From the UHGV virus genome UHGV-0095987: a stretch of 35,905 nt of DNA; one strand, 5' to 3'. Source of the stretch: a virus. The translations under genes and the position numbers were made by a program. Each line of letters opens with the position of its first letter. Position 1 is the first letter of the stretch. Below the pieces are notes generated by a model. It saw only the letters and a program-made list of their open reading frames with translations, did not search any database and was not told the origin of the DNA. Positions 1,561 through 30,529 of this stretch are shown in pieces.

Positions 1561-1614
1561 TCTGGATCTCCTGTTTAAAAGCGCCAATCATGCCATGCGT
1601 GCCAAAATCGACCA

Positions 1615-1655
1615 TTATCCAAAACCTCGGTTTGCAGGAAACGATAAATCAGGCT
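1615..1655. repeat. gix left inverted repeat (Gin recombination site)
   Basis: ttatccaaaacctcggtttgcaggaaacgataaatcaggct; reverse complement found at 4661-4701 with 3 mismatches over about 41 bp. Confidence 0.85.
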
Positions 1656-2576
1656 TCAGGCGCATTGCAGAAAAACCAGAACGGCGCAGATATTCCAAAC
1701 AAAGATAAATTTACGCAAACAATAGGTGCTTGCCGCTCTTTTCATGGTGCTATTAGCACAGGTGCAGGAAACTGGACGACGGCACAATTGATTGAATGGC
1801 TGGATTCTCAAGGGGCATTCAATCACCCATACTGGATGTGCAAATGTTCATGGTCATACGGCAATAATAAAATTATTACCGATACTGGCTGTGGAACTAT
1901 TCATCTTGCAGGTTGCGTTATTGAGGTTATGGGTAATAAAGGTGCCATGACCATCCGTGTAACAACACCAAGCACTTCCAGCGGTGGCGGAATCACTAAC
2001 GCTCAATTCACTTATATTAATCATGGTGATGCTTACGCTCCTGGCTGGCGACGAGACTACAACACGAAAAACCTGCAACCTGCATTTGCTTTAGGGCAGA
2101 CAGGAAACAGGGTTGCAAATGATAAAGCTGTTGGCTGGAACTGGAATAGCGGTGTTTATGATGCAGACCTAAAAGGCGCATCAACATTAATTCTTCATTT
2201 CAATATGAACGCGGGTAGCTGCCCGGCTGTACAATTACGCGTGAATTATAAGAACGGCGGTATTTATTATCGTTCAGCGCGAGATGGTTATGGATTTGAG
2301 GCTGACTGGTCAGAGTTTTATACCACAACCCGCAAACCCTCTGCGGGAGATGTTGGTGCATATACCAAAGCTGAATCGGATTCTCGCTATGTACGAGATA
2401 TTCGCCTGGGCACTCGTGTTGTTCAGACCATGCAAAAAGGCGTGATGTATGAGAAATCAGGTCATGTAATTACAGGGCTTGGCATTATTGGCTCTGTTGA
2501 TGGCGATGATCCGGCTGTATTCAGACCAATACAAAAATACATCAATGGCACATGGTATAACGTGGCGCAGGTGTAA
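1617..2576 (+). CDS. S': S' tail-fibre variable segment (silent in this G orientation; would fuse to the S constant part after inversion)
   Basis: ORF in frame through the gix repeat. Shares the IQNLGLQET...NGADIPNK junction motif and the C-terminal [12 protein letters not shown] motif with S; the central part differs. Confidence 0.75.
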   Translation: MQNLGLQETINQASGALQKNQNGADIPNKDKFTQTIGACRSFHGAISTGAGNWTTAQLIEWLDSQGAFNHPYWMCKCSWSYGNNKIITDTGCGTIHLAGCVIEVMGNKGAMTIRVTTPSTSSGGGITNAQFTYINHGDAYAPGWRRDYNTKNLQPAFALGQTGNRVANDKAVGWNWNSGVYDADLKGASTLILHFNMNAGSCPAVQLRVNYKNGGIYYRSARDGYGFEADWSEFYTTTRKPSAGDVGAYTKAESDSRYVRDIRLGTRVVQTMQKGVMYEKSGHVITGLGIIGSVDGDDPAVFRPIQKYINGTWYNVAQV

Positions 2577-7840: not shown

Positions 7841-8961
7841 GGCGGCGTTTTCTCCGGGTGTCTGCGATAATAATCTTCAACCAGCGCATCAATACCGCCG
7901 TTACTGTCACCTTTGTTTTTACGGTCGCTTTCAACCGGCACCAGAAAGCCTTCGCGTGGTGAAAGGCTGACGCGAGTTTTCAGCCCGTCCTGGTCATTCA
8001 GTATCAGGTTGACTTTGCTGACCAGTAATTCCGTGGTTTTGATGGCATATTTCGAGGCATCAATAGTGACCAGCAGGTTTGGCATCCAGAGTTGCCCGTC
8101 CTTGCGTGTCCATCCGTCAATGTCTGCCTCAAAGGTGATGGATTTTGCCAGTCTGCGGCGTTGCTCACGCAGGGCGCGGGCCTGTGCATCCTTCGCCGTA
8201 ATTTTGCTGTCAGCAATGATGATCATCGGTCTGTAACGGGTCACATCACTGTCAGTGGCGGTCCCTTTCCGGGAGACGATACTTTTCGCATCAATATCAT
8301 CACCCTCAGCACCGTTTGCGCGGGCATACCCCTTGACGGTGTATTCGCTGAACCGGTCGCGGAAGTCTTCCTCAAAATCCAGTGTCAGCAGATTTTCTCC
8401 GAGAACCAGCTCATCAGTGGCTGTGCTGGCAGCCCGGCTGAATACCAGCTCTCCTGCGGCATTGCTGGTCATCAGTACACCGCGTGCGCGGGAGGCACGC
8501 ACCAGCGCCTCATAAACGGTTTCTGAATGGTCCAGCGTGAAGCCGGGAAAAACTGCCGAACTTTCCTTATCGGAAAGCTCCCAGCGAACGGTAACGCCAT
8601 AAGGAGCGCACAGGTCACGCGCAATCTGTTCCAGTGTGCGGTTTTTCCACTGCCCGCCACTGTAAACGGCTGCACAGTCAATCAGGTCAGCCGTTTTGTC
8701 ACGTCCGGCGACAGTGATTTTCATACTGTCAGCGGTCATCTGGCGTCGCCGTGAATCGATATAACCGGTGCAGACAATCTGCCCCCCGATTTCCAGCGTG
8801 AACGCCTTCCCCGGTGCCAAACCGGATAAATCCGTACCCGGTGGCACGTTCACCCCCAGCTCAAAATATCCGGCTACGGATTCAATGGAGCGGGTGACAG
8901 AGACTGACGTCCAGCCGGTAAAAAGCCTGCCATCCGTTCGCAGCGTGACGGTATTACTCAT
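7828..8961 (-). CDS. P: Baseplate hub protein (Mu gp44-like)
   Basis: 377-aa ORF following the N gene; size and position match the Mu baseplate hub. Confidence 0.65.
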
Positions 8962-24348: not shown

Positions 24349-24635
24349 GCACGGGGACGAGGACGCTTGACACCGGCAACGCGGGCACGACCTTCTGCCA
24401 CATCCTGACCTCGGGAGGTCAGCGTTACGACATAAAAGCCGCGCAGGTTTTCCACGGTGACCAGTTGCTGCTCTGCCAGCCAGTCAATCTGGCCGCGAAC
24501 CACATCGCGGGAAACGTTGTGTCCGTATGCATCCAGACAGTCCTGAAGGATGGATTCGTTTGCTTCGTTATTGCAGTCCATCAGGGAACGCAGGATGACC
24601 AGACGACGGTCTTCGGTCAGAATATCGTTAATCAT
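24345..24635 (-). CDS. Hypothetical protein (Mu gp26-like)
   Basis: 96-aa ORF with ATGA overlaps to both neighbours. Confidence 0.45.
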   Translation of the reverse strand: MINDILTEDRRLVILRSLMDCNNEANESILQDCLDAYGHNVSRDVVRGQIDWLAEQQLVTVENLRGFYVVTLTSRGQDVAEGRARVAGVKRPRPRA

Positions 24636-24949
24636 GAATTACTCCGGTTTACTGCGTTTTCAAGCAGCAGCTCCAGTTGATGGGAAAATGACTGCACCCG
24701 CTGGGACAGCACCCGGATATCGCCGGACAGCTCTGCAATTCGCAGGCGCATTTCGTGTACATCTTCTGTGCCAGGGATGCTGGCGTAGCGGGTTTCCATT
24801 TCGGTCATCCGGTTTTCAAGACGCTCCACACGCTCAGTGCTGGCAAAACTACGACGCATTGCCCAGACGGCCCCACCGGCCACAACAGGCAACAGGTAAG
24901 GCCATAACGCTAAAACTGAAATCAAATCCATTATTCTGCTCCACGGCAC
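24632..24949 (-). CDS. Membrane-anchored coiled-coil protein, candidate releasin for the SAR endolysin (Mu gp25-like)
   Basis: 105 aa; N-terminal transmembrane segment (DLISVLALWPYLLPVVAGGAVWAM) followed by a helical, charged region; lies in the lysis cassette. Confidence 0.55.
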   Translation of the reverse strand: MPWSRIMDLISVLALWPYLLPVVAGGAVWAMRRSFASTERVERLENRMTEMETRYASIPGTEDVHEMRLRIAELSGDIRVLSQRVQSFSHQLELLLENAVNRSNS

Positions 24950-25125
24950 CAGTGGCAGTAGTTCGTCATCGGCTGCTGTCTCAGCACATCAGGCCGCAGC
25001 TCACGACCGCAACCGGCACACAATACAGGCGGGTCATACGCCGCCGGGCGGGGAATATCACGGGTATCCCCCTGCCAGAGTTCAGCGAGCAGCAGCGCCA
25101 CCGCCCGGTTCTGGTCTTCGTTCAT
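24931..25125 (-). CDS. Small zinc-ribbon protein (Mu gp24-like)
   Basis: 64 aa with CAGCG...CHWC (two CxxC pairs); overlaps neighbouring genes. Confidence 0.4.
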   Translation of the reverse strand: MNEDQNRAVALLLAELWQGDTRDIPRPAAYDPPVLCAGCGRELRPDVLRQQPMTNYCHWCRGAE

Positions 25126-25423
25126 AAATTTCTTTCCTTCGGGTCTCCTGTTCCCGGACTGATGCCTTGTCGCGGTTGCACTGCCCGAGCGCCATCAACA
25201 GGTCAGCATTCCAGAGAAGGGATGCTCCCCACGTCAGGGGCTGTGGCATGGGCGGAACGGGCGTTGCTTCCGTCAGTTCTGCATCAGTTTCGGGCAGGAT
25301 CACCACCGATGGCACGGGTGCGTTTTTCGAGTTCCCGCAACCTGTCAGCAGCAACGGCAGGCACAGGACGAGTGCTGCAATTGTCACCGGTAATGGCGGT
25401 TGTAATTTTTTGTTTTGCATCAT
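25082..25423 (-). CDS. Outer-membrane spanin (o-spanin) lipoprotein
   Basis: Internal start MMQNKKLQPPLPVTIAALVLCLPLLLTGCGN: signal peptide with lipobox LTGC, Pro-rich mature part; begins inside the i-spanin gene in another frame. Confidence 0.65.
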   Translation of the reverse strand: MMQNKKLQPPLPVTIAALVLCLPLLLTGCGNSKNAPVPSVVILPETDAELTEATPVPPMPQPLTWGASLLWNADLLMALGQCNRDKASVREQETRRKEIYERRPEPGGGAAAR

Positions 25424-25670
25424 GATGTTCTGTCTCGTCTGCCAGCCGCGCGGCACGATTTGCGGCACGGATAGCGGAAAATACCTGCATCGTCTGTTCC
25501 TGACCGTGTAACAACCATTCAGCCGTGTTGCGGGCCTGTTGCTCCGTCTGTAATTCACGGCGCAGCGTCTGGTTATCGTGGCGGGTGCTGTCCAGCCTGT
25601 GCCACAACACCCCGGACAGAACGGCGGCAAACACGGCTGCCAGCAGTAAACTTTTACTGGCGAAGGTCAT
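25284..25670 (-). CDS. Inner-membrane spanin (i-spanin)
   Basis: 128 aa; N-terminal transmembrane helix (SLLLAAVFAAVLSGVLW) then coiled-coil-like periplasmic domain; directly after the endolysin gene. Confidence 0.7.
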   Translation of the reverse strand: MTFASKSLLLAAVFAAVLSGVLWHRLDSTRHDNQTLRRELQTEQQARNTAEWLLHGQEQTMQVFSAIRAANRAARLADETEHHDAKQKITTAITGDNCSTRPVPAVAADRLRELEKRTRAIGGDPARN

Positions 25671-26172
25671 CCGCCCCCCTGATATTCCAGATAGCTATTT
25701 CCACTTCGCGACGGTTCATCAGTCCTTTCCATTTATGGCCTGCGGCAAACACCCAGCGGGCCATCTGGTCACGCGCTCCGGCGTAATCACCGGCATTGAG
25801 TTTTTTCAGCAGCGTTGATTTACTGAATGCGGTAACACCGGTGTTGAAAATAAACGTTGCCAGCGCCGTTTTCTGATATGGCGTCAGCGGCACCCTGACA
25901 AGACGATCGATTGCCGCATAAACCGGTTTTAAATCACTGTCGAGAAGAGCCATACACTCCGCATGGCTGTAACGGCGCATTTCGATATCCGGCCCGGTAT
26001 GTCCCACACAGACCGTAAGCACACCGGCAATATCGCGGTAAGGCATATAAGCGATATTTTCCAGATGGATCAGAGACTGACGGGTCATTTCCTGATAACC
26101 ACCCACACCGCCACCGGCAATCGTTGCCGCCAGCAGTGCGGCTTTCAGTTTTTTTGGTATCCCCGCCATCAT
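25654..26172 (-). CDS. lys: Endolysin, GH24 lysozyme with N-terminal SAR (signal-anchor-release) domain
   Basis: 172 aa; catalytic E-x8-D-x5-T triad (ENIAYMPYRDIAGVLT); Gly/Ala-rich weakly hydrophobic N-terminus (KLKAALLAATIAGGGVGG) typical of SAR endolysins. Confidence 0.85.
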   Translation of the reverse strand: MMAGIPKKLKAALLAATIAGGGVGGYQEMTRQSLIHLENIAYMPYRDIAGVLTVCVGHTGPDIEMRRYSHAECMALLDSDLKPVYAAIDRLVRVPLTPYQKTALATFIFNTGVTAFSKSTLLKKLNAGDYAGARDQMARWVFAAGHKWKGLMNRREVEIAIWNIRGADDLRQ

Positions 26173-26263
26173 GCTTCCCTGAAAAAATGCTCTGATGGCA
26201 GTCTAAAAAATCAGATGGCAGGTGCGGGATTATGGTGACAGGAAATAACCGGCAGGATGCCGG
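26173..26263 (-). promoter_or_regulatory. C-Plys region: terminator of the middle transcript followed by the C-dependent Plys late promoter
   Basis: Hairpin aaataaccggca-gga-tgccggttattt right at the C stop; then ctgattttttagactgcc (T6 run plus TAGACT -10-like) about 25 nt upstream of the lys ATG. Confidence 0.65.
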
Positions 26264-26686
26264 TTATTTCTGGCTTTCAGGTGAGAACAGATCAGGCTGA
26301 TGACGTCGTGTATGCAGCTTTCTCTGGCGGGCAATAATCTGGTAGATCTGCGGCTGGGACAGGCGATACTGGCGACGCAGTTCTTCCATGTTACGACCAT
26401 TGAACTGGCAGTAAAGCAAATCGTCGCGTAACGCGGTCAGGATCGTATCGCCGCAGGGGATGTAAAACTGCCGCCCGCCCAGAAAACAGGACAGGGCAAC
26501 GGCCTGTTTACGGGCAAGCTCACGGGGATTGCTGACGTTCTGGCGTTTCAGTTCGTTTTCCAGAACATCAATCAGATCAACCACCGAACGGGGCCAGCGT
26601 GATTCCAGTTCCGGGGCCGGGATGTTATCAATATGTCCGATTAACTGGCGAATTGCCGGATCGTGTTCAAATAAATCATGCTGCAT
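26264..26686 (-). CDS. C: C, late-gene transcriptional activator (Mor/C family)
   Basis: 140 aa; paralogous to Mor in this window (shared ...YIP.G.....L.RD..I...FNGRN..EL...Y.....Y.....R...); sits immediately upstream of lys. Confidence 0.85.
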   Translation of the reverse strand: MQHDLFEHDPAIRQLIGHIDNIPAPELESRWPRSVVDLIDVLENELKRQNVSNPRELARKQAVALSCFLGGRQFYIPCGDTILTALRDDLLYCQFNGRNMEELRRQYRLSQPQIYQIIARQRKLHTRRHQPDLFSPESQK

Positions 26687-26698
26687 ATTTTCCCCCGG

Positions 26699-26818
26699 TT
26701 AACAGACAGAAAGATACACCACGGCACTGATGGTTATCAGAACCACAAGGGCAATCACTTTTATCGCACTAATCAGCGTGGACGGCCCGAAACATTCATC
26801 ACTGAATTTTCTGTACAT
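26699..26818 (-). CDS. Small membrane protein (39 aa, Mu gp20-like)
   Basis: Found by hand translation (MYRKFSDECFGPSTLISAIKVIALVVLITISAVVYLSVC): single C-terminal transmembrane helix, AAAGGGG RBS; below the ORF-track size cutoff. Coordinates approximate to within 1 nt. Confidence 0.4.
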   Translation of the reverse strand: MYRKFSDECFGPSTLISAIKVIALVVLITISAVVYLSVC

Positions 26819-26827
26819 GGTGCCCCT

Positions 26828-27190
26828 TTACCCGAACAGACGAGCGCGAAAACGAAAGGAGAGCCAGAACGTCAGCAATCCGGCCAGCGCCCAGATGACA
26901 TGCTCAGGACCCGTTTTCAGTTGAGACGTTGCCATCACGGCTAATCCCAGCCCGGACAGACTCCCCAGCCAGGTCAGAGGCCAGACGAACCGGGCAAAAT
27001 GTTCAGGCACCCGGCAGCTCATTATCAGCGCATCCAGACAATCAGCGGCAACACATAAAGCAACACTGAAAACCGAGGCACAGCAAAACATCAGCGCGCG
27101 CCAGCCACAAAACAGACTTATCCACAATAACAGCGCCAGTAATACCACCGATAAAAAATCAGGCCACTGACGAGCAGAACGCTCAGACAT
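26828..27190 (-). CDS. Polytopic membrane protein (Mu gp19-like)
   Basis: Internal ATG (MSERSARQWPDF...) preceded by GGGAGAAA; 3-4 predicted transmembrane helices. Confidence 0.5.
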   Translation of the reverse strand: MSERSARQWPDFLSVVLLALLLWISLFCGWRALMFCCASVFSVALCVAADCLDALIMSCRVPEHFARFVWPLTWLGSLSGLGLAVMATSQLKTGPEHVIWALAGLLTFWLSFRFRARLFG

Positions 27191-27401
27191 AATGTTTCTC
27201 CCTGTAAAGCAGGCAATGATGAAGAATTTCCGGCATATCAACTGACTGCCAGCCTTTCATGTAATAACTGCCGTGGGTGCCATCATGACCGGTATAGTCG
27301 CGGGGCGCAGGCCGTGGCCCACCGGCGACACGGTGCAAAACCTCCTGACGCAGCCGCTCACGTCTGCCAAGATAAAAGGATGCATTCCAGCCTTTACCCA
27401 T
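27183..27401 (-). CDS. Hypothetical protein, first gene of the middle operon (Mu gp18-like)
   Basis: 72-aa ORF starting about 45 nt downstream of the early terminator. Confidence 0.4.
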   Translation of the reverse strand: MGKGWNASFYLGRRERLRQEVLHRVAGGPRPAPRDYTGHDGTHGSYYMKGWQSVDMPEILHHCLLYREKHYV

Positions 27402-27448
27402 GATGATTTCCCCCGGTACGGTTATTCATCACAGGATATTGAGGACGT
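27402..27448 (-). promoter_or_regulatory. Probable Mor-dependent middle promoter Pm region
   Basis: Non-coding stretch between the early terminator and the first middle ORF, about 1.15 kb upstream of the C stop, consistent with the Mu middle transcript; exact -10 not resolved. Confidence 0.45.
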
Positions 27449-27470
27449 AAAAAAAGCCGGATTAACCGGC
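27449..27470 (-). terminator. Rho-independent terminator of the early operon (t9.2-like)
   Basis: Minus strand GCCGG-TTAAT-CCGGC followed by TTTTTTT, 9 nt after the mor stop codon. Confidence 0.8.
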
Positions 27471-27478
27471 TTTACTGT

Positions 27479-27868
27479 TTACAGAAGTGAGGGCTGGTAC
27501 TGGCGGTATTTCAGCCGTCGCATCCGGCGAATGGCCTTGTAAACCGTATTGAAAGTGACACCATAACGGGTGGTCAGTTCGCTGACGTTGCGACCGTTAA
27601 AATCATTCCAGATACGCAAATCCCGAATCAGCGAGTCCAGAACCTGACCGCGTGGAATGTAGACCTGACCGCCGCCCAGATGCTTACAGATAGCCACAAC
27701 AATCTCCAGTGAATGGGCAGGATCAACACCCAGCCGGGACAATTCCCCGCGCAGTAAATCGTTCAGCTCCGCCAGCAGTGCCGGAAAGCGTGACGTATCC
27801 TCTGCGGGATTGTCAAGATGTGCCAGGATGGTGTCATCCTGCAAATCACCAAATAAATCTTCCGTCAT
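27479..27868 (-). CDS. mor: Mor, middle-operon transcriptional activator
   Basis: 129 aa MTEDLFGDLQDD...; paralogue of C; last early gene before the terminator; overlaps the gemA stop. Confidence 0.9.
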   Translation of the reverse strand: MTEDLFGDLQDDTILAHLDNPAEDTSRFPALLAELNDLLRGELSRLGVDPAHSLEIVVAICKHLGGGQVYIPRGQVLDSLIRDLRIWNDFNGRNVSELTTRYGVTFNTVYKAIRRMRRLKYRQYQPSLL

Positions 27869-28416
27869 TGTGCCATCCTCCGTGTCTTTCTGGCATGGGC
27901 ATAAGCCGCCGTCATGGCATCATAGCCGCGCAGTTCACGCCCGGACGGACTGACCGGCAATGGAAGCCCGTGACGGGAAAAGGCTTCACGAATACAGCGG
28001 ATATGCCACTGCTTGAGAGTTTCGAGAACAATCAACAGGGTGTCGCCATGACACCACGCCAGCGTGGAAACACCCTGTCCGCCATTACGTTTCGCCGTCA
28101 GGCGCTGAACATATTTATCCAGCGCCACATCACCGCCATCGGTAATAAAACCGTCTTCTGCCATCTGCTGCCAGACTTTGTATACCTTCTCGCGGGGCGT
28201 GACATGCCCCTTAAAGCGGCGACGTGGATGTTTATTCAGCTTCTTAAAGCCGTGTTCTTTCATGGCATCGAGCACCTGTTCCAGTTGCGTAACCGTCAGC
28301 TCGCGGCAACTGATGTTGCCCGTTTTCTGCATCAGAAAAGCGCGGTAAGTGTCGTCGTCGAGTTGTAGCTCCCGACGGGCGACATGGATTAATTTAATCA
28401 GGGATGTGCGATTCAT
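27865..28416 (-). CDS. gemA: GemA (host gene expression modulation protein)
   Basis: 183 aa MNRTSLIKLIHVARRELQLDDDTYRAF...; GGAGGT RBS; immediately upstream of mor. Confidence 0.85.
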   Translation of the reverse strand: MNRTSLIKLIHVARRELQLDDDTYRAFLMQKTGNISCRELTVTQLEQVLDAMKEHGFKKLNKHPRRRFKGHVTPREKVYKVWQQMAEDGFITDGGDVALDKYVQRLTAKRNGGQGVSTLAWCHGDTLLIVLETLKQWHIRCIREAFSRHGLPLPVSPSGRELRGYDAMTAAYAHARKTRRMAQ

Positions 28417-28434
28417 GATCGTACCTCCGGAAAG

Positions 28435-28456
28435 AGGCGGTGCTGCAACACCGCCT
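28435..28456. promoter_or_regulatory. Stem-loop just upstream of the gemA RBS
   Basis: aggcggtg-ctgcaa-caccgcct (8-bp GC-rich stem) with CTCTTTCC following on the minus strand; not a strong terminator, so possibly an attenuator or RNA processing/stability element. Confidence 0.35.
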
Positions 28457-28485
28457 GAATTTACACATCAATCAGAGAGGATTTT

Positions 28486-28752
28486 ATGGAAAATAATGTA
28501 CAACCTTATGATGTTGCAGGTTATGCGATTGCATCAGCACTGGTGCGCCTTCTGGTGAAGAAGGCGATCATCACCGCAGAAGAGGGCCAGGCCATTTTCA
28601 GCTCTTCAGCAGAGATTTTAAAAGATGCGCCTGCAATAAGAACAAGCCGCCGCGAAAACATGCAACTGTCAAAGATCATGGAAGACATTATCAGTTCGTT
28701 AGACCCAGATGCTGACGGATCTCAAAAGCCTCAAACACATGAGCGTCAGTAA
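28486..28752 (+). CDS. Hypothetical 88-aa protein encoded antisense to the early operon
   Basis: ATG preceded by GAGAGG at 5-nt spacing; amphipathic, helix-like sequence (MENNVQPYDVAGYAIASALVRLLVKKAIITAEEGQAIF...); occupies a 274-bp stretch with no convincing minus-strand gene. Confidence 0.4.
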   Translation: MENNVQPYDVAGYAIASALVRLLVKKAIITAEEGQAIFSSSAEILKDAPAIRTSRRENMQLSKIMEDIISSLDPDADGSQKPQTHERQ

Positions 28753-28993
28753 CAATATCCTGGTCTGATAACCCCAGCCTGCGGCGGATGTACTCCTCGC
28801 GGGCTGTTTCATTTTGCAGTGCCACTACTGTTTCCAGACGATTCATTTCGCGGTTGATAATGTCACGGACTTCTCTGGCGGTGAGATTATGCTTAATACC
28901 ATATTCAACGATAGCGCGAACACGTTCCAGCATCCCTTTTTCAGCCATGACGTTATCAATATTAAGGGGAGTAAATTTATCTTCATTGTTCAT
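28691..28993 (-). CDS. Early accessory protein, function unknown
   Basis: 100-aa ORF with ATGA overlap to the upstream gene; charged and helical. Confidence 0.5.
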   Translation of the reverse strand: MNNEDKFTPLNIDNVMAEKGMLERVRAIVEYGIKHNLTAREVRDIINREMNRLETVVALQNETAREEYIRRRLGLSDQDIVTDAHVFEAFEIRQHLGLTN

Positions 28994-29313
28994 TTTGCGG
29001 CCCTCAGAATAAATTCAGGATAAAATTTCAGACTCATTTGCCGTAACACATCCAGTGCAGCAACGGCTGCTGATTTATCGTTGCCATCAGCAATAGCGCG
29101 GAGATTTTCAATAATCCAGTGAGGACTCAGTGACTCAGCAATAATGCCAAACCGGTACGCCATGACCTCATCAATAGCTTTTTCATGAGACGTCTCATAT
29201 ACAAAATTCACAAAGTCATGCACTTCTTTTTTCGGCAAACCACCGGCAATCAGCAGGGCGGCAAGCTCTTCTGATTTTGAAAATACACCATTATTCATAT
29301 CACTCACCTTCAC
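28990..29313 (-). CDS. Early accessory protein, function unknown
   Basis: 107-aa ORF in the tightly packed early block. Confidence 0.5.
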   Translation of the reverse strand: MKVSDMNNGVFSKSEELAALLIAGGLPKKEVHDFVNFVYETSHEKAIDEVMAYRFGIIAESLSPHWIIENLRAIADGNDKSAAVAALDVLRQMSLKFYPEFILRAAK

Positions 29314-29482
29314 AATTCATGCACGCCGTGTCATCGCCCATATCGCAGTGGTTGCATTTCTGCCCGCCACAATGAGGGCACTCTTTCAGATATTCAGGGG
29401 ATTCATTACCGCAGGTCGGGCATTCCTGTTTCACCGTGGTAAATTTCCCCAGCCACGAATACGATGTTTCATTGTTTTCCAT
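29300..29482 (-). CDS. Early accessory zinc-ribbon protein
   Basis: 60 aa with CPTCG...CPHCG...CNHC...CMNC (four CxxC pairs). Confidence 0.5.
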   Translation of the reverse strand: MENNETSYSWLGKFTTVKQECPTCGNESPEYLKECPHCGGQKCNHCDMGDDTACMNCEGE

Positions 29483-29999
29483 TGTTTACCTCCGCCTGTT
29501 TTTGCGCCCGGATAAATTCGTCAGAAAGGATTTCAGTCATGCGGCCCTGTGCGGGAGTCATCCCTGTCATGACGTAAATCACATCACCAACACGGAACCA
29601 CCGGAGCGGGCCAAATATTGTTGCGCTGAAATCCAGTCCCAGTGCGGGTAAGAGAGCGTCAGTACGGGCATAAGTGACCGGAATATTCTCCTGCCATATT
29701 TTCGCCAGCTCTTTTGACTGCTCCCGCAGATGTGCAGGAATGCGCGATGTTCTTGGCCTGCAACTGTTACCTGATGCGGAGCGTTGTACAGTCCACAACT
29801 CCGGCGAGAAAGGTCGCTCATTCCCCGGAAAATTCACGCCATGAAAATGACGCCCACCAATACCTGTGCTGAATACTGACCGGCAACCACAACCCAGAAC
29901 CTTATCAAGATGGCGGGCTTCTTCGCGTAGTTTCAGGCAGTCCGCCATAAACTGGTCCCATGCCAGCAGTGCTGCGGGATTTGACGTTTTAAAAAACAT
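29469..29999 (-). CDS. Early accessory protein, function unknown
   Basis: About 176 aa from the internal ATG (MFFKTSNPAALL...) that overlaps the upstream stop; the ORF track extends to 30038. Confidence 0.5.
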   Translation of the reverse strand: MFFKTSNPAALLAWDQFMADCLKLREEARHLDKVLGCGCRSVFSTGIGGRHFHGVNFPGNERPFSPELWTVQRSASGNSCRPRTSRIPAHLREQSKELAKIWQENIPVTYARTDALLPALGLDFSATIFGPLRWFRVGDVIYVMTGMTPAQGRMTEILSDEFIRAQKQAEVNNGKQ

Positions 30000-30529
30000 C
30001 ACGCCACCTCCTGCACCGCTGCGGGAGCCGGAGAACAATCAAGAATGAGATAACGCAGTACATGGTCGGTGATATTCCAGGCGCTGGAACTGCAAATAAA
30101 ACGCCCCAGCCGGATATCGATATAAGCCATCACAAAACGGGGCATTCCCTGTTCGCACATTCTGTTGTCCACTTCTGCAACGATGTGAACGGATTCACAG
30201 GTCAGCACGCCTGTTGCAAATTCTTTTGCCAGTGCCGGAATGGCATTGCCTTCCAGCCAGGGCAATGGGCGGCGGAAGGAACACCACGCGGCATCATCAA
30301 CAGCAGACTGCTCAGTTGCGTTTCGTCTTACAGGCTGCTCTGTACGGGGACGCGGTACGTCGTAAAAACCATTAAGTTCAGTCAGCATTCCGGCATCAAC
30401 CGCATCACGCAGGAAGTACACCATTGCGGAGGATGGCATCTGCATTTTTTCAGCCAGAACCCCGCAGGTCAGGCGTCCGTAAGCCCGTAATAATGTGCTG
30501 ACACCATTCAGAATTTTTGCATCAACCAT
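29999..30529 (-). CDS. Early accessory protein, function unknown
   Basis: 176-aa ORF with GAGGAATAAA RBS; directly follows the AT-rich gap after gam. Confidence 0.5.
   Translation of the reverse strand: MVDAKILNGVSTLLRAYGRLTCGVLAEKMQMPSSAMVYFLRDAVDAGMLTELNGFYDVPRPRTEQPVRRNATEQSAVDDAAWCSFRRPLPWLEGNAIPALAKEFATGVLTCESVHIVAEVDNRMCEQGMPRFVMAYIDIRLGRFICSSSAWNITDHVLRYLILDCSPAPAAVQEVA

Follow-up and report, generated by a model that had tools for sequence, protein, structure and literature searches.

Morons are autonomous units of temperate phages, each made up of a promoter, an open reading frame (ORF), and a terminator, and they are expressed from the prophage. The subject of this work, gp15 of the Mu-like phages, resembles them in being a single non-essential ORF with a terminator-like element of its own, which stands between conserved genes and varies among relatives. 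It was studied in a window of 35,905 nucleotides (nt), the whole stretch of DNA analyzed, which comes from the UHGV virus genome UHGV-0095987; there it encodes 88 amino acids (aa) and runs antisense to the early operon, directly upstream of gemA. Unlike the morons, gp15 has no recognizable promoter, always travels with a second gene that lies on the operon strand (E15), and has a GC content (0.475-0.485) that is not distinct from the 0.51 of the gemA side and the 0.42-0.49 of the E15 side.

Antisense arrangements comparable to that of gp15 have been described in other phages. In Staphylococcus aureus phage 80alpha, ith-1 and tha-1 are a nested antisense gene and an overlapping neighbor that are reciprocally regulated and encode an effector/inhibitor pair (PMC11087260). 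Like gp15, this is a small opposite-strand gene inside a polycistronic phage operon that overlaps the transcript of its neighbor, and the layout builds in an inverse coupling of expression to the lysis/lysogeny state, which is likewise possible for gp15. There is no sequence or fold relationship between the two systems, however, and their polarity is reversed, the operon around gp15 being lytic and the nested gene presumed lysogenic. In the transposable, B3-like phage Fc02, olg1/sie1 and gene 10 are small early-region genes on opposite strands, one of them expressed in the lysogen, with a role in superinfection exclusion (PMC9936078). Fc02 and the phages studied here both have small accessory genes of opposite orientation in the early region, but those of Fc02 adjoin the repressor and not gemA, have no sequence similarity to gp15, and overlap extensively instead of only at their 3' ends.

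Our analysis indicates that gp15 is an already known gene, real and not new. What is new here is the convergent module that it forms with E15, together with the antisense-gene slot upstream of gemA. In terms of architecture, the semi-essential early region of Mu-like phages has a conserved slot for antisense genes directly before gemA-mor, whose gp15-type occupant is strictly coupled to the convergent E15, with the putative gp15 terminator written into the E15 coding sequence (CDS). It also gives a starting point, open to experiment, for working out what two of the many uncharacterized early genes of Mu do.

Coding strand of the gap upstream of gemA

The window is SfMu DNA: in a BLASTN search against a phage collection, its positions 28380-28800 were found in Shigella phage SfMu (KP010268 / NC_027382) at 100% identity and in phage Mu at 97.9%. 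The early operon is on the minus strand of the window. A preliminary description, made from the sequence without database searches, had reported a gap in this operon that holds an 88-aa ORF on the opposite strand, and its measurements were largely accurate: the gap comprises exactly 274 bp (28417-28690) between gemA (27865-28416, minus strand; GemA family PF06252, E 2.4e-29) and the E15 stop codon (28691-28693), the ORF starts with ATG and occupies 28486-28752 of the plus strand, and the Shine-Dalgarno-like (SD) motif GAGAGG stands at 28475-28480, 5 nt before the start codon. The term strong was excessive for this ribosome-binding site, which is present but whose GAGG core is adequate and not exceptionally strong. 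The starts of gp15 and gemA are divergent and enclose 69 bp (28417-28485) of shared control region, in which the gemA SD reads CCTCC on the plus strand (28424-28428) and acts on the minus strand.

The same description took the Mu annotation to have no complement-strand gene at this place and considered the ORF possibly unannotated. Both suppositions failed, since the RefSeq record of Mu (NC_000929) lists the exact ORF as Mup15/gp15 (NP_050619.1, complement(7896..8162), 'hypothetical protein'), the SfMu record KP010268 annotates it as SfMu_16, and in E. coli W it was called by PGAP as WP_000431116.1. As early as 1991, the left-end record M64097 had a complement ORF, F-134, drawn over gp15. Had Mu really possessed an antisense gene missing from its annotation, this would have been of consequence, but gp15 was in the Mu RefSeq record throughout. 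Mu gp15 (phrog_8747) lies between Mup14 and gemA, placed and oriented just as the SfMu ORF is, and the two proteins are identical in 84 of 88 residues (the changes being Q35K, I51M, N58K, and M59L); SfMu gp15 matches phrog_8747 over residues 1-88 with an E value of 1.3e-60. The stretch is present in 31 of 5426 complete E. coli genomes, and strains W and S17-1 both have the locus. A literature search on Mup15, NP_050619, and Mu transcriptomics turned up nothing on gp15. The only exception among the records is the revised GenBank entry for Mu (AF083977), in which gp15 was dropped, with no comparative support, for the forward-strand CDS Mu_54 (28521-28688 on the minus strand of the window). This is the minus-strand candidate of the preliminary description, which was correct in noting that it has no SD, although its length is 55 aa and not 58.

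The comparative data favor the RefSeq annotation over the revised GenBank one. An exhaustive phmmer search over 1.84 billion representatives returned three diverged homologues of 86-90 aa, here called P0007, P0008, and P0009 (51%, 49%, and 45% identity, respectively), each from a Mu-like prophage in which its gene is antisense and stands immediately upstream of GemA; a further match, P0006, was discarded as a repeat protein picked up spuriously. P0008 and P0009 are attributed to Salmonella enterica by one source, and P0008 is cut short by an IS256-type transposase. When the first 66 codons of SfMu, Mu, and the lineages of these three homologues were compared in every frame, the +1 frame of gp15 had no stop in any of the five sequences and all other frames had from one to seven, and differences accumulated at third codon positions (34-40, versus 17-26 at positions 1 and 2). 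All the diverged relatives examined keep the gp15 frame open and have an SD-like motif at the proper distance, with purine-rich equivalents before the start in all subtypes (AGAGGAAA, AGAAGG, AAAGGAA, TGGAGA). GC skew is positive over 28300-28600, as expected of a segment coding on the plus strand.

The opposite reading, that Mu_54 is the real gene, translationally coupled to E15, and the 88-aa ORF its antisense shadow, can draw on AF083977, which lists the one and not the other, and on the Mu_54 start codon, whose place 2 nt past the E15 stop would suit a packed early operon. In addition, its frame is open in the P0007 lineage (locus L009) and its ratio of non-synonymous to synonymous differences (pN/pS) is as low as the 0.25-0.54 obtained for gp15 in the five-sequence comparison. 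This last point loses its weight, however, because the third codon positions of the two frames coincide, so that a low pN/pS in Mu_54 is an expected by-product of the one in gp15. For the same reason pN/pS was discarded as a discriminator and the integrity of the ORFs was used instead, which means that the comparison of both frames that had been suggested gave a low ratio for gp15 and yet could not tell the two apart. By that measure Mu_54 fares poorly: its -2 frame is broken by a stop in the lineage of L013, and D108 lacks a coupled equivalent, whereas the plus-strand frame is open with a start-proximal SD in every subtype and a homology detectable by profiles joins four of them. Besides lacking an SD, the Mu_54 product is basic, hydrophobic, and of low complexity (pI 10.0), and its best family match in PHROGs reaches only E 0.13. 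On these grounds, the plus-strand ORF is very probably the real gene and Mu_54 its shadow, as the preliminary description had assumed in placing the coding frame of the gap on the plus strand; whoever revised AF083977 seems to have chosen the shadow frame, and a genuine Mu_54 is hardly credible.

The gp15-E15 module and the antisense slot

The convergent neighbor of gp15, E15 (Mu gp14, SfMu_15; phrog_6075), is an annotated early-operon gene whose ORF occupies 28691-28993 of the minus strand, so that its final 62 nt overlap the gp15 ORF at the 3' ends. A tblastn survey that covered the window and another 76 loci found gp15-like genes, whatever their subtype, together with E15-like genes of the matching subtype in 33 of 33 loci, many of which are near-identical, so that only about six independent lineages are represented. 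E15 was found apart from an intact gp15 only where a 219-bp deletion has left a remnant of the latter, and none of the surveyed loci had gp15 without E15. This asymmetry, in which E15 alone is tolerated and gp15 alone was never seen, probably rests on very few independent events. To judge from this distribution, gp15 and E15 make up a two-gene module, convergent and overlapping at the 3' ends, whose members are acquired and lost together.

The 219-bp deletion, shared by vB_YpM_3, vB_YpM_23, and locus L038, corresponds to the segment 28471-28694, which is bounded by direct repeats of ATCAG (28471-28475 and 28690-28694); one repeat and the 214 bp between them are lost. The SD of gp15 is lost with it, as are codons 1-68, and its end coincides exactly with the stop codon of E15. 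Since the Yersinia phages vB_YpM_3 and vB_YpM_23 form plaques despite the deletion, gp15 is dispensable for plaque formation and hence for lytic growth. A larger deletion was observed in L035 (IMG/VR 2875703104_000002), about 90-350 nt upstream of gemA, where the first five gp15 codons are joined to sequence near E14; this deletion takes both gp15 and E15 and is another, independent loss of the module. In L017, a Salmonella Aberdeen prophage, an IS256-family transposase (PF00872; 4236-5444) lies inside the 3' end of the gp15 homologue, which is truncated and parted from E15.

Elsewhere, other antisense genes, whether diverged or unrelated, take the site (D108, Kp4866-3, and many prophages), or there is none. 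The preliminary description had proposed a lineage-specific insertion, which is partly right: the stretch belongs to a module that varies in presence and absence and is deleted, replaced, or missing among relatives. In D108 and Mu_3F6, an unrelated-looking filler of 376 bp contains a 119-aa plus-strand ORF with the SD AAAGGA, just past the same GC-rich hairpin that precedes gemA in the window, and among the IMG/VR loci, which were surveyed by retrieval of GemA, ORFs of 80 aa (L055) and 79 aa (L031 and L033) represent further subtypes. Pairwise BLASTP between SfMu gp15 and the D108 ORF was not significant. The link between them rests on common PHROG profiles and on the bridging L055 sequence: SfMu gp15, the D108 ORF, and the L055 ORF match phrog_32893 at equivalent positions (E 2e-4, 5e-7, and 2e-9, respectively), and the L055 ORF also matches the D108 family phrog_38610 (E 2e-10). 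The D108-, L055-, and L031-type ORFs are more distant relatives of gp15, the first two joined to it by these profiles, and the alignment has a common core, Y/F-D-x-A/G-G-Y/F..L..LV..G-I-I, beyond which the tails vary and in many cases are very acidic. The family to which gp15 belongs diverges fast and has at least six subtypes, which range from 79 to 119 aa and always lie directly upstream of gemA. A pattern scan of the GTDB representative genomes returned no gp15 relative.

Other occupants of the slot are the DUF2513-like genes (PF10711; phrog_585), found in 12 other loci (Klebsiella phage Kp4866-3 and 11 from IMG/VR). They share with gp15 the antisense orientation, the position directly upstream of gemA, and an SD in each case, but their products have 133-138 aa and no significant similarity to gp15, and they never occur with E15. 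Their match is to phrog_585 and, weakly and below threshold, to DUF2513. One of them lies at 1610-2011 (plus strand) of L007, and others are in L024, L044, L061, and further loci, 30 nt from the gemA start; in the E. coli representatives, from which the hairpin of the gemA leader is absent, the SD of the slot gene and that of gemA are contained in one short inverted repeat, TCTCAT..ATGAGA. The remaining surveyed loci have forward-strand genes abutting gemA. Salmonella Mu-like prophages carry, in addition, a second antisense ORF of 111 aa with no Pfam match between mor and gemA (L013 and L014, 3052-3387, plus strand), and antisense genes in this region are therefore not confined to one slot.

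Hairpins on both sides of gp15

Between the SD of gemA and that of gp15 lies a hairpin, GGCGGTG-CTGCAA-CACCGCC (28436-28455), which had been described as a GC-rich stem-loop of 22 nt and indeed has 20 nt, or 22 if the A-T pair that flanks it is counted. Either strand can form it. Loop and flanks vary, but the stem GGCGGTG/CACCGCC is conserved in Mu, D108, Klebsiella phage Kp4866-3, the Salmonella lineage of P0009 (L013-L017), the P0007 lineage (L009), and L055, and in PhiR68_1 there is a compensatory A..T closing pair. Because the hairpin is also present where the antisense gene is absent (PhiR68_1 and L053), it belongs to the gemA leader and not to gp15. Read along the early strand, it precedes T-runs (TCTTTCC in SfMu, TCTTTTTC in L013, and TTTTTTTT in L017) in the 7-8 nt immediately before the gemA SD, and hairpin and T-run together resemble an intrinsic terminator or an attenuator in control of gemA-mor.

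On the other side, a terminator-like element on the plus strand (28775-28815) begins 23 nt past the gp15 stop and lies inside the E15 CDS. It consists of a 13-bp hairpin (28775-28806), with a predicted RNA fold of -26.4 kcal/mol (z -2.9), followed by TTTCATTTT. It recurs behind the ORF in L009, L013, D108, and L055, there with canonical runs of T5-T8, and it is kept although the E15 peptide encoded across it differs between lineages (TAREEYIRRRL versus KAHNNIVCREL). The outer stem of 10 bp is 98% paired over five lineages and has two fully compensatory pairs; the covariation score was reached by only 2 of 500 shuffles, in a small sample of five sequences. AF083977 also has a TransTermHP terminator feature at the matching place, and Rfam gave nothing relevant. 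We conclude that gp15 has its own putative terminator, a hairpin with T-run written into the CDS of E15. By the annotation of the record, gp15 is flanked on both sides, by E15 and gemA, with minus-strand genes of the early operon, and the transcript overlap with E15 predicted from the sequence amounts to 62 nt of ORF and to about 125 nt up to the terminator.

Possible function and competing explanations

In its AlphaFold2 model, built from an alignment of nine sequences, gp15 has helices at residues 8-25, 31-45, 49-53, and 61-72 and a disordered tail from residue 77, with a mean predicted local distance difference test (pLDDT) score of 68 that rises above 84 at residues 11-40. It is accordingly predicted to be a small acidic helical-bundle protein with no membrane segment. 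E15, modeled alone, is a three-helix protein (pLDDT 70). The gp15 family is acidic, with pI values of 4.3-6.2 and a net charge of -15 in D108, which argues against DNA binding. Neither gp15 nor its subtypes matched Pfam, NCBIfam, or PADLOC, PHROGs returned only families of unknown function, and a sequence-profile search of the PDB with gp15 gave nothing below E 0.35. Matches to toxin-antitoxin or defense models were likewise absent for gp15, and a type II toxin-antitoxin pair with E15 was rejected because the two genes are convergent on opposite strands and not co-transcribed.

Taken as a whole, the explanation toward which we lean, with somewhat more confidence than doubt, is that gp15 is a genuine antisense gene nested in the early operon and serves as an accessory factor of the lysogenic phase. 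Facing the early transcription driven by Pe with a stop signal of its own, it would be an antisense gene within an operon (a 'noncontiguous operon'), made while the early promoter is silent, either in the lysogen or very early after infection, and shut down in the lytic program by the converging early transcription and the overlapping E15 message. The protein would most likely act by binding another protein and not DNA, the co-inherited and lytically expressed gp14 would be its best candidate partner or antagonist, and its likely role would be that of an accessory, prophage-benefit or exclusion-type factor. Taken with these particulars, from synthesis under Pe repression to protein binding and a gp14 partner or antagonist, the reading is tentative and leans on analogy. 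An extension of it, which we consider unlikely, would make gp15 and E15/gp14 an unrecognized two-gene switch of the Tha/Ith kind, in which gp15 is a lysogeny effector (for exclusion or defense, or a modulator of a host protein) and E15 its antagonist, induction both silences and neutralizes gp15, and the subtypes stem from an arms race.

Several observations weigh against this account of gp15. The most important is that no promoter was found, which is the main weakness of any functional account of the gene: scans with the sigma-70 consensus, which weak or factor-dependent promoters might escape, gave no site at 9/12 on the plus strand of 24500-30500, and over the 220 nt that precede the ORF start not even 8/12 was reached in any of nine loci. 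No transcript, ribosome-footprint, or peptide evidence for gp15 was found in the literature searched, and no match in homology or fold points to any activity. The interaction of gp15 with gp14 is inferred purely from their co-occurrence, which itself represents few independent lineages, and pN/pS was unable to separate the +1 frame from that of Mu_54. Finally, between Mu and SfMu the gp15 codon changes are four non-synonymous and no synonymous ones, as compared with 8 and 16 in gemA, so that, small as these numbers are, constraint on gp15 is weak at short range. This pattern fits a fast-evolving accessory protein, and hints at relaxed or diversifying selection between close relatives.

The same changes, being almost all non-synonymous, would also suit an antisense RNA with an incidental protein, which could damp early read-through into gemA-mor or silence E15 through the 3' overlap. 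Its basis is the convergent arrangement, with 62 nt of shared ORF and a terminator another 23-63 nt into E15, and antisense interference is documented for the noncontiguous operon of 80alpha (PMC11087260). An RNA-only role, however, needs no open frame, no start-proximal SD, and no YDVAGY..LLV..IT core, all of which are kept across lineages in which the DNA is saturated (dS >1), and the antisense transcript has no identified promoter either; we regard this explanation as quite improbable. A regulatory role has also been considered at the level of the protein, with gp15 as a divergent DNA-binding repressor or activator of the gemA-mor semi-early promoter, comparable to the winged-helix candidates among the DUF2513-like proteins. 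The 69-bp control region shared with gemA would be suited to it, the genes that take its place in the slot are matched by phrog_585 and, weakly, by DUF2513, and hhalign aligns LVKKAIIT of gp15 with LVENGFIS of a DUF2513-like protein. But the probability of that alignment is only 7.6%, for which reason common ancestry of the two was rejected as unsupported, and gp15 gave no match to DUF2513 (PF10711) in Pfam and none to a helix-turn-helix in Pfam, NCBIfam, or the PDB. Given further that the family is acidic and that gp15 co-varies with E15 and not with gemA, such a role seems distinctly improbable.

The stretch could instead be regulatory DNA for gemA-mor, a semi-early promoter with leader hairpin or attenuator, in which no protein matters. 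AF083977 does place a 'semi-early promoter' at Mu 8151-8217, which corresponds to about 28432-28497 of the window; older work, as cited in PMC3820752 and PMC12407980, tells of constitutive expression of the gem operon in lysogens; and the GC hairpin, itself conserved, resembles a terminator when read on the early strand. A promoter, however, needs about 70 bp and leaves unexplained an open frame of 86-119 codons that every lineage retains with 15-50% protein identity. Phages that have lost the region up to the hairpin still form plaques, and a consensus scan of the early strand found no promoter-like site here, at the annotated semi-early promoter. As a substitute for gp15 this explanation is very improbable, although a promoter could coexist with the gene and the roles are not mutually exclusive.

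Beyond the module itself, the early region of the window contains SfMu_14 (107 aa, phrog_1988; 28990-29313, minus strand), an extra early gene between E14 and E15 that is not in Mu. In loci without the E15/gp15 module, homologues of SfMu_14 abut gemA or adjoin the DUF2513-like gene.

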